Shown: positions 14,039 through 60,680 of the stretch, piece after piece
Layout of the letters: every line of letters begins with the position of its first letter
How positions within the stretch are numbered: position 1 is the first letter of the stretch
Assembly (NCBI GenBank): GCA_973895155.1
Contig: OZ316896.1
Location: 17,782,754-17,846,753, forward strand
DNA length: 64,000 nt
DNA from: Marsupella aquatica
Lineage: Eukaryota > Plantae > Marchantiophyta
Direction: 5' to 3'
Program-made: the position numbers and the translations under genes
Notes under the pieces: generated by a model
Seen by the model: only the letters and a program-made list of their open reading frames with translations
Databases searched by the model: none
Told to the model about the DNA's origin: nothing

Positions 14039-17000
14039 AATTATGTACAATATTTACTGGCATGGATCATGGAGGGAGTGCATTGTGTTAAAGTGTTTCA
14101 TTTTTTGTTGGTGTCTGGTGTGATTATTGGTTTGTCTTGGACAATGATGCAACTTTTTGTGAGTCACAATAAACTCAATTCACACTTTATCATTATTACT
14201 TACCTTTGACAGTCTTTTACAACGGTGCAACTTTTTGTGAGTCACACTAAACTCATATTCACACTTTATTATTATTAATTACCTTAGACCAAATTTTTTA
14301 ATTTTTTCCTCTCCACTACTACTACTCTAAAAAGTGGCGAAACTATGTATTGTAGTTTAGGATTTAGGATAATATAAAATAATAATATAGTCTCCCATAT
14401 TCACATATGCGGGTCGATCGACTGTATATCTCATACATTTTGAATCGGGAGAAAGGACAGCTTCAATTCAATCTCGATCTTTTCAATCCTGCAGCTTCGA
14501 TCAAGTCTCTACCTCCAGAATCAATCTCACTTCAGTTGGACTTTACGTCAACTAAAGGCAAGGCGAAAGAAACAGAAAGGACTAAAGCAATATATCTATC
14601 TTTGTCTCCGCCCTTTCGCGCGGAGATGGCGGATGATGAGGCGAACCCGATCCATGGACAGATGGGTGGATCGATTAAGAATTCGAATCTTGACGTTCCT
14701 CTTAACCCCTTGGAGTTTTCACATCTGGCCCAACTTGTAGAAATTATACCACAGTCTGCTTAAGTATGATAAGCATCCTCCCGCACAGAGCGTTTGTAGG
14801 AGTTGATTGATTTTGCTAAATTCCGAAACACATTGCAGTAGATCCTCAAGTGGATCGCCTCTTGTCTCGGCAGCTTCGAGCGGTGTCCCCCGTCACCTCC
14901 AATTGTCAGTGAGTGATAGCAATATTTATCTGTCAAGGTTGCAGATGGGAAGCGTTTCTGAATGGACTGGCCCATCAACGAAGGTCATCACGTACGGGAT
15001 TCAGAATCGATTGTGTTGATGTTGATGTCGACGTCGATGTGAGATGGAAGTTTTCGTGACCGAAGTGCTCGACCGTCTAGTGACTGGATCGTGACCTCTT
15101 TCCCGAGGGCTTTCCCAGGACTTGCTTGGGTTGGGAGCTTTTTCAGGTACTTCTGAAGAATTGAGGTAGCTAAGAGTAGTTCTATTCGGCTCTGTTGGTC
15201 TGCCACTCGGAGTGATTCATGGACATAAGGTGATATTCACCGGAAAGAGTATGCGCGTGGTCTTCAACAGCATGTCAAACAAGTAGAATCAAATGTCAGA
15301 ACTGCCATAGCCTGATTAGTTTACCCAAGTTGTTATTTTCGGGTTTCTCGCATTGTACTTGATCACATGAAGTATAGAACCCGCTTTAGCAGTACTCCAT
15401 CTTCAAGAACATTGTGATCGTTCAAAGGCATGTCTAGAGTTTGTGCTATCCCGCAACAAGTTTCTCTCTTGCAATAACGTGTGTACATGAATGCCTGTAG
15501 GTACTCTTTCTCCCAATTGGCCTACGCGCGATCGGAACTACTGCAACTGCTTGCTTGAATCAATCAGCTTTTCAGCAGTTTAGGACCTTGCTAGGTGTGG
15601 ATCTGTGTTCCTCTTGTCGATCATCCGAACACTGATTGAGACTTCTCACGAAAGTTTGCAAGTTTTCTGTAATCTGTGTCGCTCGGTTGCTAAGCTGAGC
15701 TTCAGTATTATGTCCTGGATGGAAATTCTTGGATTTATGTATTTATCTTAGTGAATGACTCGGACACAGAGCATGTAATTAAGTTTCTCTGATTTGGGCC
15801 ACCAGTCCACCTATTCTTTTAACTTTGCCTTGCCACCGTCACTCGTTGGTGTCATATACGTATATCCTGATTCGGTTTATGACCATCGTCGAAGGATTCG
15901 GGATCGGGTCTTAAGGGTAAAGAGCTTTGGAGTGCTGTTGCGAATGATCCGCGGGATGGACGGCTTTCTGTTCAGTGTTGTTTAGATTGTAACGAACCTC
16001 GTTGATTGCTCTCAAATCAAAACTTCGAATCATACCCTCGTTTCGTCACTTATCTATTTAGCAAAATGTAGCTCAGATTCACTACTCTGTTAGTCACACT
16101 AATTCCGTAGCCTTCAAAGTGTGTTACACTCGAGATAGTGTGAGTCACATTAAATTTGGTGTCACTCTAATTGCAGTACACGTTATGTTTGTAGGTAAGC
16201 ATTCTGAGGCTCGGCAGAACAGGTCCACTCTGGTGCTAGCTCCAAAATGGACGTCTGATTACCAGAACAAGTTTGCAGCAATTCTAAGCCATCGCTATGG
16301 CTCAAGGGGCCTCTTCTAGTCGCACCCACAGTGCGGAGCCCCCCAAGAACACAATTACTCCGGTACTTACGGCATTGACCTCGATTCCCGCCTCGATTTG
16401 AACCTGTTTGGAAATACCCGTTCTGTTTAGAGATTGATACTTTCGATAATATGCAACCTGAAGATCTATCTCAACCATGAGTATTTTGAATTGATCTATA
16501 TCTGCAAGTTTTCAGTTTCTCGTTGTACCCAATCTGTCTCATCCAGCTAATTTCTATTCGTACTGTATTATGGCGTACTTGGGTTGTACAGCTTAATGAA
16601 TCTCTCTTTGAACTTCACAAACCGAACGGCCGACCTAGCATGGTCGTGTTGTTTTTTCACGGCTTCCAGCATGGAAATTATGAAAATGCCCATTTGACGG
16701 CTTGGAAAACAGAGGATGGACGAGAGGATGGATCATCCACATGGCTCCAGACTTGGCTGGTTGATGACGACCAGTACCCCGACGCTCACATCCTTTCTGT
16801 TGCATATAATGCTAGCTTGATGAAAAGCAAGGAAAGAGGGAGCTTTGACCTTTACAACATAGGGGAAAATATTATTTCAGATTTGTTACAGGCAGACATT
16901 GCGCAAGATCCCCACTGTCCCATAGTATTGATAGGACACAGTTTTGGGGGCCTCGTAGTGAAGGAAGTGTGTGTTCAAGCACATAAGAGAGGCAGCATGG

Positions 17001-19970
17001 GTAGCGCCAAGCATAAAACCTTTCTGGAAAATATCAAGGGGGCGTTTTTCTATTCCACCCCTCATCATGGGATTTCAGGAGAAACTTCAGAGTATTTTGT
17101 GAGCAAAAGAAATGAACCCTTGTTGGAATATGTGAAAGTCCTTAGTACTTGTGCAGCAAGATTGCATGATGATTTTGACAAGGTACGAAAGCAGTGCGTA
17201 TGGCAGACGGCAGGAGTAGGAGAAGGTTTATCCACCCATCTGGTACTGGCATTGTCTCCGAGTCTTATCAAACGGAAATATATTGAAGATCAAATCAATC
17301 ATCAGATATTACATATACAGTACACGTTTTTAGATTGCTAAATAATTTGTCTCAATTTTTTCCAGAGAATTGCTGAACAAAGGCAAAGCGCAGTAACAGT
17401 TCCATAGCGAAGTGGACCTCTATCGATGCAATCTAGTTTAGTACTAATTCATCTAACTGGCATATAAGTGAGTTTATAAAGAGTAATTTTTGTAAAGGAT
17501 ATTGTAGATATTTCATTTATTGGATCGTCACTTAGTTGTTTGCTTGTACGTGCACAGAGCACATTTAAAACACAGGTAATTGTACCAGAAGGATCGTCAA
17601 GATATGGAGAAATCTTTGTGATCGTGCCAGACGCTGATCACATATCAATCTGTCGGCCAAAATCAAAAATCTCAAGACCGTTCACGTCCTTGTCCAGCTT
17701 TCTGCGTGGAGTGTCCACTACTTGGGAGGTGAAGTCAATCTTCGCGCGCTCATAGTTTTGGTGTATTTCATACAGAAGATAATCTTATGTCGCCTTGTTC
17801 CCACCGGTACTTAAATTTATATTTGCTATGCATTGTTGACTTACAGAGACCAGTCCGCCCTCACAACCATCAATCTTTGCCCAAGTCAACGATTGGTATT
17901 GATAATGTCATGAAGGAGCTCAAACAGCAGCTTAGGACGGTCACCAGTTTGGGCTTGGCAGGTATGGGAGGGATTGGAAAGACCACCATGGCCAAGGCGT
18001 TATTCAATGATATGGAGCATCTTTACGAGTACACCTGTTTCGTTGAGGATGTGAAGAATATTGAGCACAAGGTTCAGGGTGTGGTCTTAAGGACAATGCA
18101 TGGGACGAAGGTTCACAGAGAAGGGTGGTGGGTTAGAGTTCTTGGAGGGGAAACAGTTACTGTTGGTTGTCGATGATGTGGCCTCAGAAAAACACATTGC
18201 GCTCTTGTCAACCTTGATTGATGACATTGGCATCCATGAAGATAGTCGCTTCGTGGTAACATCGAGAGATAGCGAACTTCTAAATCAATGCTTGGAGGCA
18301 GTGTACCCTATGCCGTTTCTAAGCCAAGGAGATGCGAGGAAACTTTTCTTGGCCCATGCTGTTAGGCAAGAAACTTCTCCTTCGTTTGAGGAACACATAG
18401 ACATTGTTGTGAGAAAGTGCAGTGGGCTGGCTTTGAGTCTGGAAGTCATCGGGAAGCATCTCTATAAAAAATCTTTTGCGATTTGGATGGAAGCGATCTC
18501 TATACTGGACAGGGCAGATTCTGTCCGTGGATTTGATGAGAAGTTGTGGAGTAAGCTTCGGATAAGTTTTGATGGTTTAGATCTCGAGGGAAAAGACATG
18601 TTCCTTGATTGTGCAACAGTGTTCCTTCGGGAACCTCTAGGTAGGGCAAAGGCAGCATGGAACATCACCACAAACGGGCTGCAGGAAACACTGTGGCAAC
18701 ATCTTCTCGACTTATCGTTGGTCTGGGAAATTAATGAGGGAAGTTATATGACTTGTGGCATGCATGAGCAACTTTTGAGCCTTGGGAGGAAGATAGCATC
18801 AGATGAAGTGGAACATGGCCTCAGGATGTGGGATGACCCAGAGAGGGATTTCTTGTTGTTGTCAGCTAAGAATTGCACTGAAAATGATGTGAAGGTAAGT
18901 TTTAAGAGTATGGTCTTGATCTGAACTTCCATGCACCGCACCCAAGAATTGCCTAGTGGTTTGCAGGCTGGCCATTATTGAATGCTGCGTGGTGTAGACC
19001 AAGGAAGGTCTCCAATATTGAACTTTCTGAACATATTACTGATATGGAGGAGTATTCCACTTTCATCATGTACAGGGATGTCATACATAGAAATTGGCTT
19101 TTGCAAGAAAGCATGACTTTTGAGTCGGCATTTGCAGGACATTGTTGCTATCAATGTGGATGGAGGAGGAGGACGAGTCCTACATTTAAATCATGAGGTT
19201 TGTTGGTAGCTTTTTTGCTGAGAATCATATTTCGAATTGTTGATGGCCTTTTCTGGAGAATGGTTTTGCGCATTGTTGGTGGCTTTCTCCTGAGAATGGT
19301 TTTTCGCATTGTTGGTGGCTTTGTGAAAAAGTTATTGTGGAAAAGTTATAAGGCAAACCTTCTCGAGATGAATGCTTAGAATTAAATGGATAATTGGGGT
19401 TACCTTGTTGAAAGATATTAGATAAAAGCTCACTTGGTGTGAATGGATAAATCCTTGTTTTTTGAATTATTTTAAGAAGTAGCTATGTAAGCATAGCCTC
19501 AAAGTAAAATGTTTTCTCTGAAAGTAACTTGATATTTTTAGAAGAGCATGGACTCTTTACTCCTATCCGTGAAGGTACAACTTATGTATATGTTTGTGAC
19601 CCTTTTTGAAATTGTTTGAAAACTTCTTACATTGATTTGGATTCCAAAAATGATTTCATGCAAATCTTTTCTTTCTTGCTAGTTCTTCATTTTGTGCCAC
19701 TTCTTTCCCCCAAAAAGGAGCCCACTGGTCGTGCCTTGGTAAGTAAGTTGGCAGATAGGTCTAGTTTTTAAAGATAGACTAGTAATTCATTATTTGGTTT
19801 TAATCTCCATCAGCCCAACCTACGTTGAATGAATTATCTATATGCTAGTCAGAGGTAATTTGCTGGGGCAGCTGGAACTCTGAGGGGTGAGAATGTTTTA
19901 AGTAGGTTCATAGTTAATATAAAGCTCTTAACCTTGAAACTAACAGCTTTGAATTTCTGTACTGTCATAG

Positions 19971-20141
19971 CCTTCAAGCAAGGCCCTCCACGAGGGTGTT
20001 CAGTGTGACGAGTGTTCAATGGAGCCCATCGATGGCCCGAGATTCATGTCTAGGGTACAATTCAACTATGATTTGTGTGTTGGGTGTTTTGAGAAAGGGG
20101 ACCTTAAAAAAGAGGAGTACTTTCGTCTCGATCTACCGTCT
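19971..20141 (+). CDS. ZZ zinc-finger exon (NBR1-type) of NLR copy 1
   Basis: Bounded by catag| and |gtaagt, 171 nt, phase 0-0. Translates as PSSKALHEGVQCDECSMEPIDGPRFMSRVQFNYDLCVGCFEKGDLKKEEYFRLDLPS. Confidence 0.85.
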
Positions 20142-21041
20142 GTAAGTAACACCACGCAAATGATATCTTGGAAGAATGTAAATGATTTTTAATGAGCATG
20201 TCATCTGGTCAGACAAAACTCTTACTGTAGAAGGGTTCACAGCTTGGCAGAAACACAACATTCCCATTTGAATATTAGAGTGTTTTGAAAACAGAGCGCA
20301 TGATCCTCTTCTGGAACGAATGTCCTAAGCTCCTTCACTGGAGAATGTATAAAAAGTCAGTAAATTGATAATTAAAACATGTTGACGGAACCTAAGAGAG
20401 CAGAATCACAACCAAGTCAGATCTTTGACGTGCGTGCATGAGATGTTTTGAAATGAATCTTGAATGTAGCTTTCTAAAGAAGATATGCACCTTTAAGCCT
20501 TTGCGAACATCGTGTGGTTCCCCATGCATGTGGAGTTGTGAGGCAATCCTACTCTCGCAGGATATACTACTAAAGAGGAGATGAAAGTGAATACATTAAG
20601 AAATAAACGAAGACGGTAGTACAGGACGGAGCAAAAGAATATGTTCTAATGAAATATGTTCATTTATGGGGATTAACTATAAAATTTACTTTTACTATGG
20701 GATTTGTAAGAGATATCGGGCTATCAATGTCGGAGGAGGAGCAAGCGTCAGTCTTATTATTATGACCCTTGTTCTTTTTCGTCAAAGGGGTTTGCCTTAT
20801 AATGAGGTTTGATGATGGGATTTGAAGAAGTTATCGTGGAAAAACTTTCTAGCGCAGAGCTTTGTATACACTAGATACATGGAGCTAAATGTGTAATTGG
20901 GTTATTCTTGTTGAAAAATAACCCAATTAATATAAAACCCTAAAAAAGGAAAGATCCCATGAAGAGATGGAACGTTTCACTCTAACAAAACTGGTTTCTG
21001 GAAATTTTGGGAAATGTATGTGGGGACTTATAATGGCCAAA

Positions 21042-21520
21042 TAATTGGCTGAACTTTAGTTCAGTAGTTGTGATGGGGGCCCAAAAATGGCCCCAACATG
21101 TATTTGTCAGATATACTTTCCTCTGCAGTACTTTTGTCTGCAGTACTTTCGTCTGCAATACTTTCGTTCCCTTTGGTGTGCCATACTTTGTCTTTTGTAA
21201 TTGGCTGAACTATGTTCAGCTATGTGATGGGGGCCCAAAAAATGCTCCCAAGATGCTTTTGTCAAAAATACATACTGACTGCAATACTAGACTGCAAGAC
21301 TAAACTTCTATACAGTTTCCTTTGTTTTAAAGAGACCAAAACAAAACACATGTATTTCATACAGTATTTGTATTCAAAGCAAGATCATGATGGCTTACAT
21401 AGGCAGAGGAAAGAGATGAGGGGGACATTTAATGATTTTGTCTTTTGTGTTTACTTCATTCTTTTGTTTATTTTCACTTTGTTCAGCCTAATGTGACCAA
21501 ACCCCCTTTGGTCACGGGCC
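21042..21520 (+). mobile_element. Intronic insertion of about 480 bp, Helentron/HINE-like non-autonomous element
   Basis: It is absent at the paralogous site in copy 2 (about 29260-29275). It has a subterminal inverted repeat GGCTGAAC...GTTCAGCC and a 3' hairpin GTGACCAAA-CCCCC-TTTGGTCAC (21493-21515). No clear target-site duplication is visible. Confidence 0.55.
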
Positions 21521-23256
21521 TGGTAGAAAGTTTGTAATCTGAGGAGATGTGTTTGTAGTTTCGAGGTGGTCCATGTGTAGCCCAAGGATATCTTCTAAAG
21601 AGAAGATGAATGTGATTCCATTTAGAAATTCTAAGATGGCAGGTTTTATCCTATCATTTTTAATGTTGTTAATCTGGGTTTCAAGGAGCAGTCTAAGACG
21701 GAAGTAGAGGACCAAGTACAAGCAAATTTAAAACTGAATCATGCTCAGGATATATTAATTCAAAGCTGCAGCCTGCATTACTTACATTGACAGTTGTTAA
21801 GCCAATTGCAAACTATGAGAGAAACTAACCTGTTGTTTGGTGCTGTGAATGCCATTTGGTAGGACTTGCCCACCATTGAAGGAAGCACATTCTGCAAAAT
21901 GCGAAATCTGAGATATCTGGGGTTGGCCCACATAGCCATTGATCAAACTCATTGTGCAACACTGCCGTCTACACTTGTCTTCCTTCGGATGTATGGGGTG
22001 CAGTTTTCTGTCTTTCCTTTCCGCCCAAGCGACCATGAGCGGATGGCCATTCTGCACATATCCGGTTGCCTTGGACTTCGTGCCCTTCCCACTGCTTTTG
22101 GCCGACTCTCATCCCTTCAAGAGTTACGTATTTTTGGGGCTCCTAATTTGACGACCTTACCTGACTCGCTTGGGAGTTTTCGAAAGCTGGCGTATCTAAG
22201 GTTGGACGATTGTTCTAGTCTAGGGGAGTTACCCCAAACATTTGGCCAACTGGTAGCTTTGGAAAATTTAGACATAAGTGACTGCGATGCTCTCTCAGCC
22301 TTGCCAAAGTCGTTTGGATGTTTACCGAAACTCAAAACTCTGCGTATCAGAGGCTGTCGTAGTCTTCACACCCTGCCCGATACATTCCTGGAGCTTCAAA
22401 GATTGGAGTCGCTAGAACTGTTCGGGACATATTTGCAGAGCATTCCCAACTTGGAGAATCTTAGGTCATTGAAACATCTCCGTGTATATCAGAAAGCTCC
22501 TCATTTTCAAATCCGCAGTCTATCCGATTGGCTTCGTCACACGGTTTAGTAAGAAACTGGTGGGGCTGAGGAGGAAAATGGTGATGAATAAAGTTGGCTT
22601 CTCTTGAAGTTTCTCTCTTGCAAGGACGTGTGTACATGAATGCCTGTAGGTACTCTTTCTCCGCAATTGGCCTACGCGCGATCGGAACTACTGCAATGCG
22701 CGATCGGAACTACTGCAACTGCTCACTTGAATCAGTCAGCTTTTCAGCAGTTTAGGACCTTGCTAGGTGTGGATCTGTGCTCCTCTTGTCGATCATCCGA
22801 ACACTGATTGAAGACTTCTCACGAAAGGTTGCAAGTTTTCTGTAATCTGTGTCGCTCTGTTGGTAAGCTGAGCTTCAGTATTATGTCTTGGATGGAATTC
22901 TTGGATTGATGATTGTCTTTATCTTAGTGAATGACTCGGACACGGAGCAGGTAATTAAGTCTCTCTGATTTGGGCCAGCACTCCTCCTATTCTCTTAACT
23001 TGCCTTGCCACCGTCACATGTTGGTGTCATATACGTATATCCTGACTAGGTTTATGAGCGTCGTCGAAAGATTCGAGATCGGATTTTAAGGGTGAAGAGC
23101 TTTGGAGTGCTGTTGCGAATGATCCCCGGGATGGACGGCTTTCTGTTTCAGTGTTGTTTAGATTGTAACGAACCTCGTTGATTGCTCTCAAATGAAAACT
23201 TCGAATCATACCCTCGTTTCGTCACTTATCTATCGAGCAAAATGTAGCTCAGATTC

Positions 23257-24636: not shown

Positions 24637-27600
24637 ATGGGTCAAGGGGCCTCTTCTAGTCGCACCCAAAGTGCAGAGCCCCCCAATAACACAATTACTC
24701 AGGTATCTTACGGCATTGACCTCGATTTGAACCTGTTTGGAAATACCCGTTCTGTTTAGAGATTGATACTTTCGATAATATGCAACCTGAAGATCTATCT
24801 CAATCATAAGTATTTTGAAATTGATCTATATCTGCAAGTTTTCAGTTTTTTGTTGTATCCAATCTGTCTCATCGAGCTAATTTCTTTGCCTACTGTATTG
24901 TGGCATGCTTGGGTTGTACAGCTTAATGAATCTCTCTTTGAACTTCACAAACCGAACGGCCGACCTAGCATGATCGTGTTGATTTTTCACGGCTTTCAGC
25001 GTGGGAATTATGAAAATGCCCATTTGACGGCTTGGAAAACAGAGGAAGGACGAGAGGATGGATCATCCACATGGCTCCAGACTTGGCTGGTTGATGACGA
25101 CCAGTACCCCGACGCTCACATCCTTTCTGTTGCATATAATGCTAGCTTGATGAAAAGCAAGGACGAGGAAGGTTTGACCTCTTCATCATAGGGGAGAATA
25201 TTATTTCAGATTTGTTACAGGCGAATATTGCGCAAGATCCCCACTGTCCCATAGTATTGGTAGGACACAGTTTTGGGGGCCTCGTAGTGAAGGAAGTGTG
25301 TGTTCAAGCACATAAGAGAGGCAGCATGGGTAGCGCCAAGCATAAAACCTTTCTGGAAAATATCAAGGGGGCATTTTTCTATTCCACCCCTCATCATGGG
25401 ATTTCAGGAGAAATTTCAGAGTATTTTGTGAGCAAAAGAAATGAACCCTTGTTGGAATATGTGAAAGTCCTTAGTACATTTGCAGCAAGAATCCATAACG
25501 ACTTTGACCAGCTACGAAAGCATTGGGCTTGGCAGACGGCAGGAGTAGGAGAAGGGTCATCCACCCATCTGGTACTGGCATACCCTCTCAATCTTATCAA
25601 ACGGAAATATTGAAGATCAAATCAATGATCAGATATACCTTATACACTATACTTTTCTAGATCGTTGACTAATTTGTCTCAATTTATTCCACAGAATTGA
25701 TAGACAAAAGGCAAAGCGCACTACCAGTTTCATAGCCAAGTGCAACTCTATGGATGCAGTCTAGTTGAGCACTGATTCATCTAAGTAGCATCTAAGTGAG
25801 TTAATAAAGAGTAATATGTGTGAAAGATATTGTAGATACTTCATTCATTGGATAGTCACTTGGTTGTTTGCTGGTACGGTCACAGGGCACATTTAGAACA
25901 CAGGTAATTGTATCAGAAGCATCGTCAAGATATGGAGACGCCTTTGTTATCGTGCCAGACGCTGATCACATATCAATCTGTCGGCCAATATCAAAAATCT
26001 CAAGACCGTTCACGTCCTTGTCCAACTTCCTCCGTGGAGTTTCCACTACTTGGGAGGTGACGTCAAATTCTGGCGCGCTCATATTTTTGGTGTGTTTCAT
26101 ACAGAAGGTAATTTTATGTTGCCTAGCTTGTTCCCACCGGTACTTATCTATATTTGCTATGCATTGTTGACTTACAGAGACCAGTCCGTCCTCACAACCA
26201 TCAATCCTTGCCCAAGTCAACGATTGGTATTGACAACGTCATGAAGGAACTCGAACAGCAGCTTAAGACGGTCACCAGTTTGGGCTTGGCGGGTATGGGA
26301 GGGATTGGAAAGACCACCATGGCCAAGGCGTTATTCAATGATATGGAACATCTTTACGAGTACACCTGTTTCGTTGGGGACGTGAAGAATAGTGAGAACG
26401 AGGTTGACGGTATGGTTTTAAGGAACATGCATCGTATGGGAACGAGGTTCACAGAGAAGGATGGTGGGTTAGTGTTCTTGAGGGGGAAACAGTTACTGTT
26501 GGTTCTGGATGATGTGGCTTCAGAGAAACACATTAGGCTATTGTCAACCTTGATTGATGACATTGGCATCCATGAAGATAGTCGCTTCGTCGTAACATCG
26601 AGAGATAGCGAACTTCTACGTCAATGCACGGACGCAGTGCACCCTATGTCGCTTCTTAGCCAAGGAGATGCGAGGAAACTTTTCTTGGCCCATGCTGTTA
26701 GGGAAGAAGCTTCTCCTTCCTTTGAGGAACACGTAGACCATGTCGTGAAAAAGTGCGATGGGCTGGCTTTGACTCTGGAAGTCATCGGGAAGCATCTGTA
26801 TAAAAAACCTGTGGCGATTTGGATGGAATCGATCTCTATACTGCACAGGGCAGATTCTGTCCGTGGATTTGATGAGAAGTTTGGATAAGTTTTGATGGTT
26901 TAGATCTCGAGGGAAAGCACCTGTTCCTTGATTGTGCGACTGTGTTCCATGGGGGACATCTAGCTACGGCAAAGGCAGCATGGAGCATCACAACAAATGG
27001 GCTGCAGGAGACACTGTGGCAACATCTTCTCGACTTATCGTTGGTGTGGGAAATTCCAAAGGGCGATTGGGGCATGCATGAGCAACTTTTGAGCCTTGGG
27101 AGGAAGATAGCATCAGATGAAGTGGAACATGGCCTCAGGATGTGGCCCCATGGAGGGATTTCTTGTTGTTGTCAGCTAAGAATTGCACTGAAAATGATGT
27201 GAAGGTAAGTTTTAAGAGTATGGTCTTGATCTGAACTTCCATGCACCGCACCCAAGAATCGCCTAGCGGTTTACATGTTGGCCATTATTGAATGCTCCAT
27301 GGTGTAGACCAAGGAAGGTCTCCAATCAATGTTGAACTTTCTGGACTTATCACTGATATTGAGGAGTATTCCACTTTGATCATGTACAGGGATGTTATAT
27401 GTAGAAATTGGCTTGTGCAAAAACACATGACTTGTGAGTTGGGATTCGCAGGACATTATTGCTATCAATGTGGAAGGGCGCGCTCCTGGAGTCCGACATT
27501 TAGTTTATGAGGTTTGTTGGTGGCTTTCTCCTAGGAATGGTTTTGCTCATTGTTGGTGGCTTTTGGAAAAAGTTCTTGTGTGAGAGTTATAAAACAAACC

Positions 27601-30303
27601 TTCTCGAGATGAATGCATAGAATTCCCTTGTTGAAATGTATTAGTTAAAGAGCGCACAGGGTGTGAATCGATAAATCCTTGTATTTTGAATTTTAATAAG
27701 AAATAGATATGTAAGGAAAGTCTCAAAGTGAAATGTTTTCTCTCAAAGTTGATATTTTTAGAAGAGCATGGACTCTTTACCCCTATCCGTGAACGTATGA
27801 CTTATGTATATGTTGGTGCCCCTTTTTGAAATTTTTTGAAAACAGTTTTTACGGTGATTTGGCTTTCAAAAATGGTTTCATGCAAATCTTGTCTTTCGTG
27901 CTAGTTCTTCATTTTGTGCCACTTCTTTCCCCCAGAAAAGAGCCACTGGTCGTCCCATGGTAAGTAAGTTGGCAGATAGGTCTTGTTTTTAAAGACAGAC
28001 TAGTAATTCTTCTTTTGGTTTCAATCTCCATCAGCCCACATACATTTAATGAATCATCTATATGCTAGTCAGAGGTAATTTGCTGGAGCAGCTGCAACTC
28101 TGAGGGGTGAGAATATTTTAAGCAGGTTCATAGTCAATTTAAAGCTCATAACCTTGAAACTAACAGCGTGAATTTCTGTACTGTCATAGCCTTCGAGCAA
28201 GGCCTTCCACGAGGGTGTTCTGTGCGACGAGTGTTTAATGATGCCCATAGAGGGCCCGAGATTCAAGTCTAGGGTACAGTTCAACTATGATTTGTGTGTT
28301 GGGTGTTTTGAGAAAGGGGGCCTCAAAACAGAGGAGTACTTTCGTCTCGATCTACCGTCTGTAAGTAACAGTCACACCACGCAAATGATATCTTGCAAGA
28401 ATTTAAATGATTTTTAATGAGCATGTCATCTGGTCACACAAAACTCTTACTGTAGAAGGGTTCACAGCTTGACAGAAACACATTCCCATTTGAATATTAG
28501 AGTATTTTGAAAACAGAGCGCATGATCCACTTCTGGAACGAATGTCCTAAGTCCTTTACTGGAGAATGTATAAAAAGTAAATTGATAATTAAAACATATT
28601 GACGGAACATAAGAGAGCAGAATCACAACCAAGTCAGATCTTTGACGTGCGTGCATGAGATGTTTTGAAATGAATCTTGAATGTAGCTTTTTAAAGAAGA
28701 TCTGCACCTTTAAGCCTTTGCGAAGATCGTGTGGTTCCCCATGGATGTGGAGTTGTGAGGCAATCCTACTCTCGCAGGATACTACTAAAGAGGAGATGAA
28801 AGTGAATACATTAAGAAATAAACGAAGGCGGTAGTAGAGGACAGAGCAAAAGAATATGTTCTAATGAAATATCTTCATTTTATGGGGATTAACTATAAAA
28901 TTTACTTTTTACTATGGGATTTGTAAGAGATATCGGGCTATCAAAGTGGGAGGAGGAGCAAGCTTCAGTCTTATTCTTATGACCCCTTGTTCGTTTTTGT
29001 TTTTGGGACAAAGGGGTTTGCCTTATAATGAGGTTTGATGATGGGATTGAAGAAGTTATCGTCGAAAATCTTTCTAACGCAGAGCTTTGTATACACTAGA
29101 TACATGGAGCTAAATGTGTAATTGGGTTATTCTTGTTGAAAAATAACCCAATTAATATAAAACCCTAAAAAAGGAAAGATCCCATGAAGAGATGGAACGT
29201 TTCACTCCAACAAAACTGGTTTCTGGAAATGTTGGAAATGTATGTGGGGACTTAAAATTGGCCAAATGATAGAAACTTTGTCATCTGAGGAGATGTGTTT
29301 GTAGTTTCGAGGTTGTCCCTGTGTAGCCCAAGGATATCTTCTAAATGAGAAGATGAATGTGATTCCAGTTAGAAACAAAGCCTAAGATGGCAGGTTATAT
29401 CCTATCATTTTTAATGTTGTTAATCTGGGTTTCAAGGTGCAGTCTAAGACGGAAGCAGAGGACCAAGTACAAGCAAATTTAAAACGAATCATGCTCAAGA
29501 TATATTAATTCAAAGCTGCAGCCTGCATTACTTACATTGACAGTAGTTAAGCCAATTGCAACCTATGAGAGAAACTAACCTGTTGTTTGGTGCCGTGGAT
29601 GCCATTTGGTAGGACTTGCCCACCATTGAAGGAAGCACATTCTGCAAAATGCGAAATCTGAGATATCTGGGGTTGGCCCACATAGCCATTGATCAAACTC
29701 ATTGTGCAACACTGCCGTCGACACTTGTCTACCTTTGGATGTATGGGGTGCAGTTTTCTGTCTTTCCTTTCCGCCCAAGCGACCATGAGCGGATGGCCCT
29801 TCTGTACATATGGGAGTGTCCTTCGTGCCCTTCCCAATACTTTTGGCCGACTCTCATCCCTTCAAGAGTTACAAATTCGTTGGGCTCCTCATTTGAAGAC
29901 CTTGCCTGACTCGCTTGGGAGTTTGCGAAAGCTGGTAACTCTATGGTTGGACGATTGTTCTAGTTTAGCGGAGTTACCGCAAATATTTGGCCAACTGGTA
30001 GCTTTGGAAAGTTTACGCATAGGGGACTGCAATGCTCTCTCAGCCTTGCCAAAGTCGTTTGGATATTTACCCAAACTCAAAACTCTGGTTATCTCGGGCT
30101 GCCGTCGTCTTCACATCCTGCCCGATACATTCCTGGAGCTTCCAAGATTGGAGTGTCTAGTGCTAGACTGGACATATTTCCAGAGCTTTCCCAACTTGGA
30201 GAATCTTAGGTCATTGAAACATCTCGTTGTATTTCAGGAAGCTCCTCATTGTATATCGTTGTATATCCGCAGTCTATCCGATTGGCTTCGTCGCACGGTT
30301 TAG
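24637..30303 (+). pseudogene. Hydrolase-NB-ARC-ZZ-LRR NLR copy 2, with multiple frameshifts
   Basis: Same exon structure as copy 1: 24637-24702 (MGQGASSS), hydrolase from 24922, NB-ARC about 26177-27204, ZZ exon 28190-28360, LRR 29613-30303. Frameshifts occur at about 25166 (-1), 26881 (-13, giving TAA), 27146 (-4) and 29822 (-5). Confidence 0.88.
28190..28360 (+). CDS. ZZ zinc-finger exon of NLR copy 2
   Basis: Translates as PSSKAFHEGVLCDECLMMPIEGPRFKSRVQFNYDLCVGCFEKGGLKTEEYFRLDLPS, bounded by AG and GT. Confidence 0.85.
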
Positions 30304-39443: not shown

Positions 39444-39497
39444 AATAATTTAGACGGCTGAATTTCCGGACAGTTCAAACTAACTTGGGTTTCAACC

Positions 39498-45810: not shown

Positions 45811-45937
45811 AGAGCTTCTTATTTTCTCTATCACACAATTTTGTGGGATAAACTTCTACACTTGGGTTTTTGTAGTCACTTTACCTCGAGATCATCTCGA
45901 GGTAACTACATCCAACGGTTTGGGCCACGTTTTCAAA

Positions 45938-46933
45938 ATGGGGAGTTTCTCTCGAGGGGACAAGGTGTGCCTCGTAATCGATGGAGTGGAAGTTGCTTGC
46001 GGGACGGTCCTCAAGGTTGACCCGGGTGACTCAGTGCGTAATGTTGATTTGGGAAGTAATCATATAGGAGTTCTCATTGAGAAGTGCTATGAGGGATCAC
46101 GGGAAATTCCTTACCCTTTGCCGCCGATCAGGACCCTGTTTGATGCTGTCGACTCTTGCATTATTTGGGATGCCCCTTTTGCATATTTGAAGTCACAGTC
46201 AACTCCAACGACAACGAAAATGGATGCCTCCTGTTCTACAAAGGATACGGTTCCGGGTTTTGTACCAGAGAAATCGTCGGTGGAAAGTTTTGGAGACTCG
46301 ATTGTATCTGGCGATGAAGTCGAGGTCTGGATCGGCAATCAGATTGTGGCTCGTGGATTTGTGTTCAAGACGAATCCCGATGAGACATGTCACAATGAAA
46401 GACTTGGCACTTCTAGGATTAGTGTGAAAATATGTGAAGTTTTTCAAGGAAGGGAGAGGTTACCCTTTCCTCACAATGGAGCTGATACCGTTCAGGAAGC
46501 ATTGGATACTTTTGTATTGTGGAATTTAAAGGATGTTACTCGGAGGAGTTCTTCCCGGGATATGCTAAACAACCTGTCCAGACAGGATGTTTTTTCAAAT
46601 TATAATTTCAAGGATTATAGTTTGCGTTCTAATTGGATGACCGAGGAGGCGGAATTGTATGCTGAGGATAATCGGACCAAAGTGGGGGTTGGCATCATCA
46701 CAGTTCCTTTCGAGTCAGGTGCAATTGATGATGATGTTCTTGGACCAGATCATGTTGGGGTTGCTGTCACAAGCGTGATTGATCCTATATTTTTCCCACA
46801 TATCTCCCCAGGAGTGCCTGGTCTTGTTAGGTGGGCCGTCCGTTCACTTTTGCTGATATCAAGGGGTATTTTTCTTCTGGATTTCATTGAAGAGGTTTCT
46901 CCGAAACCATTATTGATGGTCGAGATCATCTAG
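45938..46933 (+). CDS. Transposon protein with three tandem Tnp1/En/Spm-like (DUF8039-type) domains; probably the 5' exon of the transposase
   Basis: Three repeats follow the pattern VA.G.V....P....H...LG.....V.I..V......LP.P.....T..DA....I.W. A phase-0 intron at 46895-46968 would join this ORF to the transposase ORF. Confidence 0.6.
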   Translation: MGSFSRGDKVCLVIDGVEVACGTVLKVDPGDSVRNVDLGSNHIGVLIEKCYEGSREIPYPLPPIRTLFDAVDSCIIWDAPFAYLKSQSTPTTTKMDASCSTKDTVPGFVPEKSSVESFGDSIVSGDEVEVWIGNQIVARGFVFKTNPDETCHNERLGTSRISVKICEVFQGRERLPFPHNGADTVQEALDTFVLWNLKDVTRRSSSRDMLNNLSRQDVFSNYNFKDYSLRSNWMTEEAELYAEDNRTKVGVGIITVPFESGAIDDDVLGPDHVGVAVTSVIDPIFFPHISPGVPGLVRWAVRSLLLISRGIFLLDFIEEVSPKPLLMVEII

Positions 46934-46941
46934 AGGTAGAT

Positions 46942-49626: not shown

Positions 49627-50469
49627 GTCAAATGTTTTTTAGTAGTCACTCTGTCAGAGTGAGGGAGTCTAGTATGTCAATTAGTTTGGAATTAGACATG
49701 TCAGAGTGAGGGAGTCTAGTATGTCAATTAGTTTGGAATCAGACATGTCTTTAGTACTTACTGAGTGTTGGTTAGTACTAAGGACTAGTATATCTATTTA
49801 AGGAACTAATTATTATAATATTTTGGGATACTAGTTTGAATAGGTGCAGGTAATTGGACTTGGATACCTTTATAATTGCTTTAATTAATTATTATATCAA
49901 TACAGACTATATATTACATGAAGTCTTAATATCCATGATAGGATGTGAGTGCCTCTTAGTACTGTCTAGTAAACCTTAGTTTCAACTCGAGTTGCTTAGA
50001 ATGTACTAACAAATTACTTGTCTGAATGGATATTTAAACTAAACCCTAAGTAGAAGGTTAATTTAGCTAGCTAAGGGTAGAGATCATATTGAAGCTTTAC
50101 TAGTTATATGGGTAGAGATCATATTATTTGAAGCTTTACTAGTTATATGGGTAGAGATCATATTGAAGCTTTACTAGACACTTATATTCTATTAGTCAAA
50201 TTGAATCAATGTAAGTAAATTCTACTTCTTATCCAACATATTTTACATTATTATCACCCAAATGTTTTTCTTTAGAATCCAAATTAATATTTCATTTTCT
50301 CCTATGTACAATCTTGATCCCCCAAATGTACAACATCTGGTGCCCAAATGTACAACTCCCACTGCCCAAATGTACAATTCTTGTGCCCAAATATATATTT
50401 TTTGGTGCCTAAATGTCCAAAGATCAAAGAATTTTCCAGTTTTAATGAATAGACTGATTTAACAGCATT

Positions 50470-52421: not shown

Positions 52422-55400
52422 ATGGCTCAAAGGGCCTCTTCTAGTCGCACCAATAACACAATTACTCAGGTATCTTACGGCACTGACCTCGACCTGAACC
52501 TGTTTGGAAAATGCCCGTTCCGTTTAGAGATTGATACTTTGGACAGTTTGCAATGATCATGAGTATTTTAGTTTTTGGAGTTTTCAGGTTTTATCCAATC
52601 TATACAGCTAATTTCTATGCCTACCCGTTGGCGTGCTTGGGTTTTACAGCTTAATGAATCTCTCTTTGAACTTTACAAACCGAAAGGCCGTGCTAGCATG
52701 GTGGTCTTGTTTTTTCACGGCTTTCAGCATGGAAATTATGAAAATGCCTATTTGTCAACATGGACAACTGACGATGGACGAGAGGATGGATCATCCACAT
52801 GGCCCCAGACTTGGTTGGTTGATGACGACCAGTACCCCGATGCTCACATCCTTTCTGTTGAGTATAATGCGAGCTTGATGAAAAGCAACCAAGAAGGAAG
52901 CTCTGACCTCTACGTCATAGGGGAAAATATTATTTCTGATTTGCTAGAGGCAAATATTGCGCAAGATCCCCACTGTCCCATAGTATTGGTAGGACACAGT
53001 TTTGGGGGCCTTGTAGTGAAGGAACTGTGTGTTCAAGCACATAAGAGAGGCAGCATGGGTAGCTCCAAGCACAAAACCTTTCTGGAAAATATCAAGGGGG
53101 TATTTTTCTACTCCACCCCTCATCATGGGATTTCAGGAGAAATTTCCGAGTATTTTGTGAGCAAAACAAATGAACCCTTGTTGAAATATGTGAAAGTCCT
53201 GAGTACTTCTGCAGCAAGATTGCATGAAGATTTTGAAAAGGTACGAAAGCAGTGCGCTTGGCAGACGGCAGGAGTAGGAGAAGGTTTACCTACCCATCTG
53301 GTACGGGGCATTCACTCTCAATCTTATGAAATGAAAATATATTGAAAATCTCTGACAGCTTCCAATTATTTGTAAAGCAAATCAATGATAAGATATTACT
53401 TATAGACGGTAAACATTTTCTCGATTGTTGACTAATTTGTTTCAGTTCATTCCATAGAACTGATAGAAGAAGGAAATGCGCAGTAACAGTCTCATTTCTA
53501 TGGATACCACCTAGTTTAGTACTAAGTCATCCAAGTAGCATATAAGGGAGTTGATCAAGAGTAATTTGTGTGAAGGATATTGTAGATGCTTCATTCATTG
53601 GATCGTCACTTGCTTGTTTGCTTGTATGTGCGCAGAGCACATTTAAAACAGCGGTAATTGTACAGGAGGGATCGTCAAGATATGGAGACACCTTTGTTAT
53701 CGTGCCAGAGGCTGATCACATATCAATCTGTCGGCCAAAATCAAAAATCTCAAGAACATTCAAGTCCTTGTCCAGCTTCCTGCGTGGAGTTTCCATTACT
53801 TGGAAGGTGAAGTCAAATTGTCGCTCATATTTTTGGCGTACTTAATACAGAAGGTAGTGCTATGTCGCTTTGTGTCCACCGGTGCTTATTTGAGATTTGC
53901 TTTGTATTCATTGTTGAATTACAGAGACCAGTCCGGCCTCAGAACCGTCAATCTTTACCCAAATCAACGATTGGTATTGATAATGTCATGAAAGAACTGA
54001 AACACAAGCTTGAGACGGTCACCAGTTTGGGCCTGGCAGGCATGGGAGGGATTGGAAAGACAACCATGGCCAAGGCGTTATTCAATGATATTGAGCATCT
54101 TTACGGGTACACCTGTTTCGTTGGGAATGTGAAGAATTTTGAACAGGAGGTTGAGGATATCGTCTTAAAGGAAATGCATCATATGGGAAGGAGGTTAGCA
54201 GAGAAGCATGGTGGGTTAGAGTTCTTGGAGGGGAAACAGTTATTGTTGGTACTGGATGATGTTGCTGCAAAAAAACAGACTGCCATATTGTCTACCTTGA
54301 TTCGTGACATTGGTGTCCATGTAGATAGTCGCTTTGTTGTAACATCGAGAGATTGCGAACTTCTAGATCAATGCTTGGAGGCAGTGCACAGCATTCCCTT
54401 TCTAAGCCAAGGAGACGCGAGGAAACTTTTGTTAGCCCATGCTTTCAGGCAAGAAGCTTCTCCTTTATTTGAGGAACACATAGACATTGTTGTGAAAAAG
54501 TGCGGCGGGCTGGCTTTGACTCTGGAAGTCATAGGGGAGCATCTGTATAAAAAACCTCTGCCTATATGGAAGGAAGCTGTCACTATACTAGAGAGGGCAG
54601 ATGCTGTGCGCGGATTTGACGAAAAGTTGTGGAGTAAGCTTCGGATAAGTTTTGATGGTTTGGATCTTGAGGAGAAACACGTGTTTTTGGATTGTGCGAC
54701 AGTATTCTATTTGCAACCTCTAGATAGGGCAAAGATAGCATGGAGCGTCACCACAAATGGGCTTCAAGAGACACTGTGGCAACATCTTGTCGACTTATCG
54801 TTGGTCTGCGAACTTCCTTCGGGAGAATATCAAAGTTGTTGTGGCATGCATGACCAACTTTTGAGCCTTGGGAGGAAAATAGCATCAAATGAAGTGGAAT
54901 ATGGCCTCAGGATGTGGGATCACCCGAGAAGGGCCTTCCTTTTGTTATCGCCAGATAATTCCATTGACAATGATGTGAAGGTGAGTTTGAAGAGTATGGT
55001 CTTTATCTGAGAATTTCCATGCACTGCATCCAAGAATTGCCCAGGGGTTTGTATCTTGGCCATTATTGAATGCTGCATGGTGTAGACCAAGGAAGGTCTC
55101 CCATGCTGTTGAATTTTCTCAAGACGTCACTGATATTGAGGAATATTCCACTTTGATCATGGACAGGGCTACGTGTAGCAATTGGGTTTTGAAACTAAGA
55201 ATGACTTGTGAGTTGGAATTTGTAGGACATTACTGCTATCAATGTGGATGGACGAGCACAAGGACATTTAAGTAATGACAAGGTTTGTTGGTGGCATTTT
55301 GAAAAAGATAATATGGTCAGTGGAAACGTTATAAGACAAGACTTCTATTGATGGATCTTAGAACTAAATGGATACTTGTGATTTCCTTTTTGATAGTAAG

Positions 55401-57879
55401 GTACTCAACGAAGAGCCCATTTGGTGTGAATGTATAAATGTTCAAACTGCACGAAAACAGTCATGACCTTTGCAAAATATATATTTTGACCAATGTTAGA
55501 AAGTTTGTGAAAACCGGATGCGAGATATCGAATGGTAATTCTGTATTGCTTTGGTTTTAGTTTCCAGTAGTTTCACTACATTCCAAGTCTAGGAAATCAT
55601 CTGTATGCTAAAGGCAATTTGCTGCAGCAGATGCAACTTCAGAAGGTCAGGATATTTAAAAACTGTTTCATAGCTGGTCGGCTGTAACTCTTAACCTTGA
55701 ATTTTTCTACTTTGTTCAGGAAAGTATCACTCCCGTTAATACTGGGGACGCCAAAAACAGAACTCTATCAGAAAACTCAACAGCAGAGACTTCCACCAGG
55801 GTTGTCCACAAGTATATAACTTGTGACGAGTGTTTAATGAGACCCATAAAGGGCCCGAGATTCAAGTCTATGGTACAATATGACTATGATTTGTGTGGCG
55901 GGTGTTTCGAGAAGGGCGGTCACAGAAAAGACGAGTATGTTCGTGTTGATCTACCTATTGTAAGTAACCGCAAAGCAACTGATCGACCTCTTGAAAGAAT
56001 TAAAGATATTTTTAATGAGCATTTCATCTGCTCACACACAACTTTAATTATGGAAGGTACGTTTGGCTGGACGCAAACACAGCATTCCCGTTGGAATATT
56101 AGAGTGTATTGAAACCGAGTGCATGATCCACATTATGGAACACATGCCATAATTGAGCTAGATGTGGATGAACAAATGATATAGAAAGTATACAAGTCAG
56201 TAAAAGTGATTTCATTAAAAGAGGTTGAAGGAAGATCAGATAGCTCTACAGTAGCACCAACATGTCAGACCTCTGACATGCCTGCACTGGATGTTTTGAA
56301 ATGAATTTGCGTACAATGGTGGAAATTTTGATCCATAGTAGCCCATCGTAGCCTTTGCTAATGTAGCGTGCTCCCCCGAGGCATCTGGAGTGTTGAGGCT
56401 GTCCTATTGTCCCAAGGATATCTGACTAAAGAGGAGATGAAAGTGGTTACATTTAGAAACAAATTCTAAGACGCTTGTAGAGGAATGAGCACAAGAATAT
56501 TTTCTATTGGGTTATTTAGATTACATGGGGATGAAATACAAATTGACTTTTGAGTTGGGATTTGTAGGATTTTCGGGCTATTTATGTCGGCGGAGGAGCA
56601 CATTTCCAATCACATTGTGATAAGGTTTGTTTGTTCCCTTGTGTTGACTAAGGGAAACCTGGGGCATTCTGAGGTTTGTTGGTGAGATTTTGGAAAAGTT
56701 ATTGTGGAAAAGCACTCTAACCTAGACTTTAGTATAGATGAGTATATAGAACTAAATGTGTATTTGAGATTTTTTTTTTTTTCCTCAGATGGTCCAACAT
56801 GAAGAGCTACAGTAGTTTGGTACAAATGTTCAAAACCTCTTACTTTAAGCTAAAAATAATAAAATCTTCTGAAGAGATGGAACCTTATCAGGATAACAAA
56901 AGTGTTTTCTCGAAATTTCTGGAAATTATTTGTTGATTCATAGTATGACCGAATGCTAGAAAGTTTGTACTATCGGAGGACATATCTGTAAATTTGAGGT
57001 TGTCCATGTGTCTCCCAAAGGTACACTCTAAACAAAGTCTTAGAAGTAGAGGACCAAGTACAAGCAAATTTAAAACTGAATCATGTTCAGGATATATTAA
57101 TTCAAAGCTGCAGCCTTCGTTACTTACACTGACAGTAGTTAAGCCAATTGCAAATTATGAGAGAAACTAACCTGTTGTTTGGTGCCGTCGATGCCATTTG
57201 GTAGGACTTGCCCTCCGTTGAAGGAAGCACATTCTGCAAAATGCCAAATCTGAGATATCTGGAGTTGTCCTTCTTAACCATTGATCTAACCCATGGTGCA
57301 ACACTGCCGTCGACACTCGTCTCCCTTCGGATGTATGGGGTGCAGTTTTCTGTCTTTCCTTTCCGCCCAAGCGACCATGAGAGGATGGCCCTTCTGCACA
57401 TATGGGATTGTCCTGGACTTCGTGCCCTTCCCACTACTTTTGGCCGACTCTCATCCCTTCAACATTTAGGTATTTCTGGGGCTCCTAAATTGAAGAGCTT
57501 GCCTGACTCGCTTGGGAGTTTGCGAAAGCTGGCGTATCTATGGTTGGACGATTGTGATAGTCTAGCGGAGTTACCGCAAACATTTGGCCAACTGGTAGCT
57601 TTGGAAAATATATACATACGTGACTGCGAAGCTCTATCAGCCTTGCCAAAGTCGTTTGGATATTTACGAAATCTCAAAAATCTGACTATCGTGGGCTGCC
57701 ATCGTCTTCACACGCTTCCCGATACGTTCCTGGAGCTTCAAGGATTGGAGAGGCTAATACTATGGAGTACATTTTTGCAGAGCATTCCCAACTTGGAGAA
57801 TCTTAGGTCATTGAAACATCTCCGTGTATATCAGGATGCTCCTGATGTTGACATCCGATTTGATGCGTTGGAAGGCTGA
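52422..57879 (+). CDS. Intact alpha/beta-hydrolase-NB-ARC-ZZ-LRR immune receptor (NLR copy 3, about 984 aa)
   Basis: All exons are phase 0 and lack internal stops: 52422-52469, 52650-53300, 53636-53806, 53925-54980, 55226-55282, 55720-55959 (ZZ), 56568-56624 and 57205-57879. Motifs: GHSFGG, ADHISIC, GMGGIGKTT, LLVLDDV, GLAL, MHDQL and about 8 LRRs. Confidence 0.9.
55720..55959 (+). CDS. ZZ zinc-finger exon of NLR copy 3
   Basis: Bounded by ttcag| and |gtaagt, 240 nt. Translates in part as VVHKYITCDECLMRPIKGPRFKSMVQYDYDLCGGCFEKGGHRKDEYVRVDLPI. Confidence 0.88.
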
Positions 57880-59819: not shown

Positions 59820-60497
59820 AGAACGAATGGATCCACTGATGGCAATGGGAATCCAGGTATTTTTGAGAATTGAGGAAGAAATGGATATGGGATGTCAGGG
59901 AAAGGCGAATGGATCTACCAGAGTAGACAACAGCAAGGGAGGTCTGTAGTTTACCTCGTTTTAGTTCATTTTAGACGAAGCGTTAGTTGCTATATGCCAT
60001 CCAAATTGTCGGCTGCTTTTAATAATAAGTATTCCAAGATGCTTTGCAATTTTGCAGAGTCTGTAGAGTTTCTGGTACTTAAACTTTTGATACAGTTATC
60101 AAAAACGCTTCTTGTTGCATGTTGTCGTGAGATTGAATGGTTGAACAGTCATTGATGAGGCAGCAGAGGACCACTATATGGCTCTGGGCAGTGAACCAAA
60201 CAAGAAAATCAAGTCATAGACGTCCTGGATCAACTTCTACATTAAGGTATGGTTCGACAGCTCTTGGAATTGTATTCTTTTGAAACTACACTTCTCTTTT
60301 GACACTCGTGCGCGTTATGAATTTTGCAGCACTTAGTTTAAAAAAAATCTAAATGCATCTAATGTATTTGGAACACTGAATAACAATTTTGCAACGGCTG
60401 ACATTAATGCTGGATAATACCAAGAATTTTAGAAGATCTGGCTAACCTTTGAATTTCATCTGCGAACAGATAATGTCAGCATCAAGCTTCTTCAACA
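59820..60497 (+). pseudogene. Degenerate duplicate of the 3' end (last two exons and 3' region) of the 3903-8822 gene
   Basis: atggatatgggatgtcaggg..agacaacagcaagg and gcagaggaccactat..ggctctgggcagt..aaacaagaaaatcaagtca match 8474-8775. The intron is retained. Confidence 0.85.
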
Positions 60498-60501
60498 CCC
60501 G

Positions 60502-60680
60502 CTAAGGAGGAAGCTTTGACCTCTACGTTATAAGGGAAAATATATTTCAGATTTGCTGGAGGCAAATATTGCTTAAGATCCCCACTGTCCCGTAATATTG
60601 GTAGGACACAGTTTTGGGGGCCTCGTGGTAAAGGAACTCTGTGTGCAGGCACATAAGAGAGGCAGCATGGGGTAGCACTA
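60502..60680 (+). pseudogene. Fragment of the NLR hydrolase exon
   Basis: Matches the FDLY.IGENIISDLLEANIAQDPHCP.LVGHSFGGLVVKELCVQAHKRGSMG coding DNA, with indels and a stop. Confidence 0.85.

Follow-up and report, generated by a model that had tools for sequence, protein, structure and literature searches.

An NBR1-type ZZ finger predicted in the first leucine-rich repeat loop of a liverwort hydrolase-NLR, a candidate immune sensor

The gene P3, on the plus strand of a 64,000-nucleotide stretch of the Marsupella aquatica genome (contig OZ316896.1 of assembly GCA_973895155.1; the whole stretch is called the window below), is predicted to encode an immune receptor of the hydrolase-NB-ARC-LRR type, in the NLR class (nucleotide-binding with leucine-rich repeats), that has a ZZ zinc finger in the loop of its first leucine-rich repeat (LRR). 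The finger was likely captured from a gene of the NBR1 family of autophagy receptors. It may act as a built-in sensor: its acidic pocket would bind a foreign or freshly cleaved protein by its free N-terminus, the ligand would release the switch, and the NLR would oligomerise and signal through its hydrolases, a reading to which we give slightly less than an even chance. The architecture is real, conserved and apparently undescribed; its donor family can be traced and its insertion site is unusual, but the function is one that we infer.

P3 (52422-57879) has two tandem paralogs in the window, P1 and P2, and relatives among the gene models of a second liverwort, Calypogeia fissa. It forms one open frame of 984 amino acids in eight predicted exons, all AG..GT-bounded and in phase 0:

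52422..52469, plus strand: exon 1, start codon (ATG) and 16 amino acids up to a GT donor; homologous to exon 1 of P1 and P2 and to the beginning of C. fissa P0004.
52650..53300, plus strand: exon 2, alpha/beta-hydrolase (DUF676/PGAP1-like) with a GHSFGG nucleophile elbow; Pfam DUF676, 29.9 bits (cut-off 20.3).
53636..53806, plus strand: exon 3, end of the hydrolase with a conserved DHISICRP histidine motif, also present in the C. fissa relatives.
53925..54980, plus strand: exon 4, NB-ARC domain whose P-loop (GMGGIGKT), Walker B (LVLDDV) and MHD motifs are all intact; Pfam NB-ARC, 83.2 bits.
55226..55282, plus strand: micro-exon A (57 bases, AG..GT, phase 0), 19 amino acids, predicted first LRR strand; peptide homologues in P1, P2 and C. 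fissa.
55720..55959, plus strand: ZZ exon, 80 amino acids, linker and one-zinc NBR1-type ZZ with a D/D/D pocket; Pfam ZZ, 36.1 bits, and predicted fold.
56568..56624, plus strand: micro-exon B, a duplicate of micro-exon A behind the ZZ, of uncertain inclusion; the frame is kept with or without it.
57205..57879, plus strand: last exon, LRR array and stop; Pfam LRR_14, 67.5 bits.

By sequence P3 has the N-terminal alpha/beta-hydrolase, central NB-ARC and C-terminal LRR that define hydrolase-NLRs (Hyd-NLRs); an earlier note on this DNA had read the architecture in that way, and the Pfam matches to DUF676, NB-ARC, ZZ and LRR_14 bear it out. Among solved sequences nothing clearly matches the hydrolase (best E 0.33). 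The predicted protein has 965 amino acids if micro-exon B is left out, and a frame of 885 amino acids stays open if the ZZ exon is dropped. All four introns around the ZZ exon contain in-frame stops, so the gene needs splicing.

The other two tandem paralogs on the plus strand are as follows:

16297..22549, plus strand: P1, ZZ exon at 19971-20141 with a D/N/D pocket; frameshift at about 18100.
24637..30303, plus strand: P2, ZZ exon at 28190-28360 with a D/N/D pocket; four frame-breaking indels.

In all three genes the ZZ exon is AG..GT-bounded, in phase 0 and marked by the common motif H..CDEC...PI.GPRF(K/M)S.V..(D/N)YDLC..CF...EY.R.DLP; the P2 domain scores 37.8 bits against Pfam ZZ (cut-off 21.4). 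The earlier description of three complete paralogs sharing this exon is correct for the exon and its motif, but P1 and P2 as complete genes are ruled out in the assembly sequence by a 5-base deletion in the NB-ARC exon of P1 (at about 18100) and by the indels of P2 (at about 25166, 26880, 27146 and 29821), and only P3 is intact. The MHD position reads MHD in P3 and MHE or IHE in P1, P2 and most of the C. fissa hydrolase NLRs (P0001-P0013). Further remnants of the same NLR family, one LRR piece and two hydrolase pieces, lie at 32949-33613, 60482-60685 and 63357-64000, the last of which, a hydrolase piece, continues past the window end.

The ZZ exon evolves as coding sequence. By Nei-Gojobori counts over 50 codons of the ZZ core, with Fisher tests on rounded counts, the nonsynonymous (dN) and synonymous (dS) divergence is 0.219 and 0.635 between P3 and P1 (dN/dS 0.34, p 0.005) and 0.179 and 0.594 between P3 and P2 (dN/dS 0.30, p 0.006). 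The core of P3 is 75-78% identical to those of P1 and P2 without gaps, whereas the flanking introns are 63-64% identical and gapped. The dN/dS of about 0.3 shows purifying selection on the exon. Outside the ZZ, P3 and P1 differ less at silent sites (hydrolase 0.16-0.19, NB-ARC 0.22-0.37, LRR 0.11), and therefore recombination seems to have made the flanks alike while older types of the ZZ cassette persisted. These data also bear on whether the ZZ exon is absent from the mRNA and the finger a relic within an intron. Skipping the exon would keep the frame, and its inclusion in C. fissa rests on gene models of unknown support; but the phase-0 splice sites are conserved in three paralogs, the exon is gap-free with an excess of synonymous changes beside gapped introns, and independent C. 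fissa gene models include it, so that a relic is highly improbable.

The donor was sought by comparing the ZZ with other ZZ domains. A profile made from the three window domains had 3167 matches among 1.84 billion representative sequences, the best 150 of which were taken by whole-protein score, a ranking that favours proteins with several ZZ domains. Among these 150, the best single domain was the second ZZ (ZZ2) of C. fissa P0090, a PB1-ZZ-ZZ-UBA-UBA model, followed by NBR1 of Netrium and then NBR1 of angiosperms. In an enlarged set of 751 domains, which is enriched in NBR1 because it adds the best 120 of 1083 matches of a query that included NBR1 domains, ZZ2 of C. fissa P0227 (85.2 bits) and of P0090 (83.7 bits) take ranks 4 and 5, outscoring the ZZ domains of the C. 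fissa NLRs themselves and followed by NBR1 of Netrium and of angiosperms; the NBR1 ZZ of Marchantia paleacea scores 63.3 bits. The P3 exon is 48% identical to ZZ2 of P0227 over 73 gap-free residues, including about 20 residues of upstream linker, and 49% identical to M. paleacea NBR1 over 63 residues with one gap. With the P3 ZZ as phmmer query, P0227 scores 72 bits, against 37 for KCMF1, 33 for p62, 18 for PRT1 and 16.5 for BIG. The hidden Markov model check that the earlier note had called for therefore places the closest non-NLR relatives in the NBR1 family and not among other ZZ proteins. The attribution to NBR1/Joka2 has to be refined: the affinity is to the NBR1 family, but the top match, an NBR1-like model with two ZZ domains, has no FW domain and is not a canonical NBR1, and no canonical C. 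fissa NBR1 is among the matches listed.

Trees of 57 alignment columns were built from 63 ZZ rows, or from 35 rows after nine long or unlabelled rows had been dropped and 19 thinned; the plant non-NBR1 domains of PRT1, BIG, HAC and ADA2 were left out of both. The seven NLR ZZ domains fall on one side of a branch supported at 83/85 with 63 rows, where the bootstrap had not settled, and at 74/83 with 35 rows. A starred branch (98/94) of the 35-row tree separates the NLR and NBR1-type domains from two-zinc ZZ domains, and the two-zinc rows form one side of a branch (87/92) in the 63-row tree. In the approximately unbiased (AU) test neither C. fissa ZZ2 (p-AU 0.246) nor M. paleacea NBR1 (p-AU 0.309) is rejected as sister of the NLR domains. 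In P1, P2 and P3 both cysteines of the second zinc site are replaced (by Ser and Gln), so these are not canonical two-zinc ZZ domains; a canonical two-zinc ZZ of the p62, KCMF1 or HERC2 type is rejected as donor. The four-cysteine form, which had been called characteristic of plant NBR1, is typical of it but not exclusive, and is rejected as a diagnostic: among the best 150 of 3167 matches, 112 of 517 ZZ domains lack both second-site cysteines, including domains of other architectures such as an alpha-kinase fusion.

Models of NBR1-like proteins with two ZZ domains and no FW domain occur in C. fissa (P0090, P0227) and in Riccia (P0117, P0253, both PB1-ZZ-ZZ), and P0310 of M. paleacea is a canonical NBR1 with a single ZZ. 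The FW-less models are possibly a real paralog, a second receptor resembling p62, or the product of gaps in gene models.

The insert is conserved in the second liverwort. A homologue search with the NB-ARC exon of P3 gave 74 matches, of which 19 are from C. fissa, including the best 13; by these matches the window would be assigned to a leafy liverwort. Five of the 19 (P0001, P0004, P0005, P0006 and P0008) carry a ZZ insert at the same site, and no ZZ motif was found in the other NLRs among the 74. The NB-ARC domains of the carriers are 48-65% identical (63-65% for P0004-P0006, 52-54% for P0001 and P0008). P0001, P0004, P0005 and P0008 pass the Pfam ZZ cut-off, and P0006 retains a remnant without cysteines. 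In an NB-ARC tree of 28 rows the eight ZZ carriers occupy two starred clades at an open fork with non-carriers, which implies two changes; a tree forcing them into one clade is not rejected (p-AU 0.695) and has a slightly better likelihood. A single old insertion behind all carriers is the simplest reading, not a proven one. Several of the C. fissa hydrolase-NLR models P0001-P0013 contain a repeated NB-ARC unit.

The ZZ exon had been placed between NB-ARC and LRR, which is roughly right; its position can be refined to the loop that follows the apparent first LRR strand. In the matches from NLRs with a Toll/interleukin-1 receptor (TIR) domain, P0028 and P0031, a short strand comes after the winged helix, then a short loop and then the first LRR turn. 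The ZZ-less C. fissa relatives keep this order, their loop being some 20-40 residues long, and the ZZ occupies that loop in the carriers. The strand encoded by micro-exon A is homologous to the one that stands immediately before the first LRR turn in TIR-NLRs and ZZ-less relatives. An AlphaFold model of P0004 (20-row alignment, mean predicted local distance difference test (pLDDT) 73.6) has plant NLRs as its best structural matches, RPP1 first and also NRC2 and Sr35. It contains a confident strand at 645-649, a segment with pLDDT below 50 at 652-724, and LRR strands that resume at about 728. From the order in the relatives and from this model, the micro-exon A strand is probably the first LRR strand. 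The ZZ is not resolved in the full-length model (652-724), hence no contact of the ZZ with LRR or NB-ARC is claimed. Micro-exon A and the intron that follows it have a diverged duplicate behind the ZZ exon in P3 (55190-55446 against 56532-56834, 67-70% identity) and in P1 (66-69%); none was detected in P2 at E 0.01. The duplication may be a scar of the ZZ insertion or a later event.

Modelled alone, the P3 ZZ is predicted with pLDDT 83.8 (28-row alignment), and the 18 structures that match it best all come from entries with a ZZ or ZZ-type domain, among them HERC2 (Z 9.0, root-mean-square deviation (rmsd) 2.7 over 58 residues), KCMF1 (Z 8.0) and p62 (Z 6.2, rmsd 2.1 over 46). In p62, Asp129, Asp147 and Asp149 are reported to grip the alpha-amino group and first peptide bond whatever the residue (PMC6098011). 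The equivalent positions are D/D/D in P3 and D/N/D in P1, P2 and the presumed donor; 76 of 80 NBR1-type domains, a set that includes near-duplicates and NLR copies, have one or the other. In ZZ1 of fission-yeast Nbr1, the N-termini of cargoes are described as sitting in the same pocket with cargo-specific contacts, one of them through a hairpin loop (bioRxiv 2021.02.07.430097).

Variants of the P3 exon were collected from public contigs under two organism labels (four runs, 11 to 32 contigs per run). The contigs cover introns and have no GT..AG joints at the predicted junctions; they behave as DNA, are uninformative on splicing and may include the source of the window. Among 40 of the 67 variant rows, 31 lie in the ZZ core, 8 silent and 23 replacing when each base is read alone; an apparent stop at L39 is an artefact of reading alone one base of a double change, both parts of which occur at the same contig depths. 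These 40 rows spare C35, D36, C38, P42, I43, P46-S50, D55, D57, L58, C59 and C62, leave the four cysteines and the three pocket aspartates untouched, and concentrate their replacements at exon positions T34, L39-M40-R41 and K44. A fixed pocket beside a variable loop is the look expected of a ligand sensor, and the sensor reading is therefore favoured.

NLRs are generally activated by release of the LRR clamp, nucleotide exchange and oligomerisation. In P3 the proposed sequence of events would begin with the capture of a symmetric phase-0 ZZ exon from an NBR1-family gene into a gene with introns all in phase 0, and because of this matching symmetry the insert would have arrived without a break in the frame. 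The acidic pocket of the ZZ in the first LRR loop would hold the free N-terminal end of a protein that is foreign or has just been cleaved; a ligand on the ZZ, beside the junction of winged helix and LRR, would loosen the LRR clamp; the loosened clamp would permit ADP/ATP exchange and oligomerisation; and the oligomer would cluster the hydrolase domains and lead to cell death. No head-to-head partner NLR gene is found in the window and the switch motifs of P3 are intact, so P3 likely senses and signals alone, as a self-sufficient NLR. The hydrolase domains of two Marchantia NLRs are reported to cause cell death resembling the hypersensitive response in Nicotiana benthamiana (PMC11218826).

Several observations weigh against the proposed sensor. 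No ligand, effector or phenotype is known for it. One of the three copies in this assembly is intact, P1 and P2 being broken. The pocket is kept equally well in ordinary NBR1-type ZZ domains, and its conservation may therefore reflect only fold or ancestry. The position of p62 Asn132, which reads the first side chain, is not kept, being Leu in P3 and P2 and Ser in P1. Doubt about the NBR1 ZZ as an N-recognin is expressed by Kwon et al. The LRR has a dN/dS of 1.13 between P3 and P1 and of 1.1-1.6 overall, and is itself a candidate recognition surface. The finger is eroded in three of the five C. fissa copies, the models of which are otherwise full-length: P0005 lacks the Asp149 equivalent, P0008 one cysteine and P0006 all four, and the full set of four cysteines and both amino-group aspartates is left in P0004 and P0001 alone. 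In C. fissa P0009 a long acidic stretch occupies the same loop, which evidently tolerates unrelated inserts. The erosion, the acidic insert and the LRR dN/dS above 1 would also suit a tolerated passenger, a phase-0 exon in a permissive loop that stays folded only to spare a receptor whose LRR does the recognition. A clean loss of the exon would have been frame-neutral, yet the exon has been kept in lineages with NB-ARC identities of 48-65%, at a dN/dS of about 0.3 and with its pocket residues untouched, which makes a mere passenger quite unlikely.

It is unlikely that the finger is instead a classical integrated decoy, mimicking a surface of NBR1 that effectors attack or hijack, with no need of the N-terminus pocket. 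Pathogen proteins are reported to engage NBR1 (PMC9582228), and Joka2 without PB1 and ZZ does not reach haustoria (PMC6029844); the insert resembles the NBR1-like ZZ2 of the host, upstream linker included, and its surface positions vary. However, the sole mapped contact of an effector with NBR1 that was found, that of SDE4405, is reported for the UBA domain (PMC13140610), the titles and abstract openings of the literature searched name no ZZ-binding effector, and identity between the NLR ZZ and the presumed target reaches only about 50%. Alternatively, the ZZ might bind a host partner, such as NBR1 cargo or the N-terminus of the receptor itself or of a neighbour, and thereby set the autoinhibition or turnover of the NLR. 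The rice NLR BPH14 is described as binding OsNBR1 with a dampened response (PMC10284691), and the insert adjoins the junction of winged helix and LRR. Such a regulatory role is very doubtful: an insert without PB1, FW or UBA cannot alone route a protein to autophagosomes, and the loop beside the pocket differs between copies.

If the finger is indeed a sensor of N-termini, the cargo pocket of an autophagy receptor would have been turned into an immune trigger and the plant NBR1 ZZ would gain a class of ligand; none was found for it in the portions of the NBR1 literature consulted. P3 and its relatives would then form a surveillance system for N-termini in which the ZZ is an exchangeable cassette, its loop sets specificity, and processed effectors or the cleavage products of pathogen proteases are detected; this reading as a whole is speculative and unlikely. 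An integrated domain is a pointer to a host protein with which pathogens interact, and an NBR1-type ZZ that is long kept, amplified and under selection in a bryophyte NLR would mark the ZZ as an immune interface of early land plants. It also offers ligand screens a small, foldable bait of 55 residues with natural variants (intact, D-to-N and eroded), provides a hydrolase NLR for which a trigger can be proposed, and marks the first LRR loop as a natural place for insertion.

The rest of the window contains features of other kinds. Between P2 and P3, at 37463-50465, lies a 13-kb element with 32-base inverted ends that are 91% complementary, a putative plant DNA transposon carrying a methylase of bacterial type. 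Its open reading frames (ORFs) are:

46891-49494, plus strand: DUF7869 transposase-like ORF (Pfam).
38169-39248, minus strand: NIF phosphatase-like ORF (Pfam).
39498-41015, minus strand: ORF with an N6/N4 DNA methylase match (Pfam, 28.2 bits, cut-off 26.7).
41680-43482, minus strand, and 45761-46933, plus strand: two long ORFs for which the Pfam search gave no match.

Within the element, 40062-46935 holds a near-palindromic repeat (CTCGAGACGATCTCGAG type), about 17 bases long, in many copies that lie in either orientation. A perfect inverted repeat of 47 bases with a 12-base loop is found at 35598-35703. Upstream of the NLR cluster, at about 3855-8665, is a multi-exon glutamine-rich gene with a DUF7725 match at 7155-7670.

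The earlier proposal of a new sensor-NLR architecture stands for the liverwort form, an NBR1-type ZZ within the LRR, but not for ZZ as an integrated domain of NLRs, which has already been tabulated. It accounts for 7 of 9651 genes for NLR-IDs (NLRs that contain integrated domains) in 305 angiosperm genomes, all of them coiled-coil NLRs (CNLs) of Aquilegia coerulea (PMC12787737), and the NBR1 FW domain was not seen in the integrated-domain list of that article. Bryophyte Hyd-NLRs, including some with integrated domains, have also been published (Chia et al. 2024, PMC11218826); neither a ZZ or NBR1-derived domain nor Calypogeia is named in the portions of that article consulted, as distinct from its supplementary list of integrated domains, which may include ZZ. 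The domain table of Sarris et al. 2016 (file 10), the supplement of Andolfo et al. 2019 and the cloned NLR-IDs tabulated in PMC9528084 do not include ZZ, and the titles and abstract listings of the literature searched gave no account of an NBR1-type ZZ inside the LRR of a liverwort hydrolase NLR.

Compared with known systems, P3 has the N-terminal alpha/beta-hydrolase, NB-ARC and LRR described for the Hyd-NLRs of PMC11218826. C. fissa P0004, P0005, P0006, P0001 and P0008 have its architecture and insertion site and differ in being undescribed database models with MHE instead of MHD and three eroded fingers; P0004-P0006, unlike P3, also lack the second micro-exon peptide behind the ZZ. The ZZ of plant NBR1/Joka2 and of P0090 and P0227 has one zinc site, Ser for the first second-site Cys and a D/(D,N)/D pocket, as does the ZZ of the NLRs, which took only the finger and a short linker and no PB1, FW or UBA. 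The fold and the three acidic pocket positions are common to the P3 ZZ, p62/SQSTM1 and ZZ1 of fission-yeast Nbr1; relative to p62, P3 has lost the second zinc site and does not keep the Asn132 position, and any N-terminus binding by P3 is a prediction. In the Aquilegia ZZ-CNLs, as is predicted for the liverworts, ZZ is an integrated domain expanded in one lineage; those genes are of the coiled-coil type, with the ZZ at about residues 994-1181 and its subtype and donor not stated (PMC12787737). Their integration is presumably an independent event, and their separate entries suggest that recruitment of ZZ was repeated. Plant NLR-IDs with HMA, WRKY, BED, Exo70 or NOI domains (PMC9528084) likewise hold a host-derived domain as a likely bait or sensor; compared with the cloned ones, P3, a hydrolase NLR whose switch motifs are intact and which has no paired helper in the window, is predicted to carry its domain within the first LRR loop.

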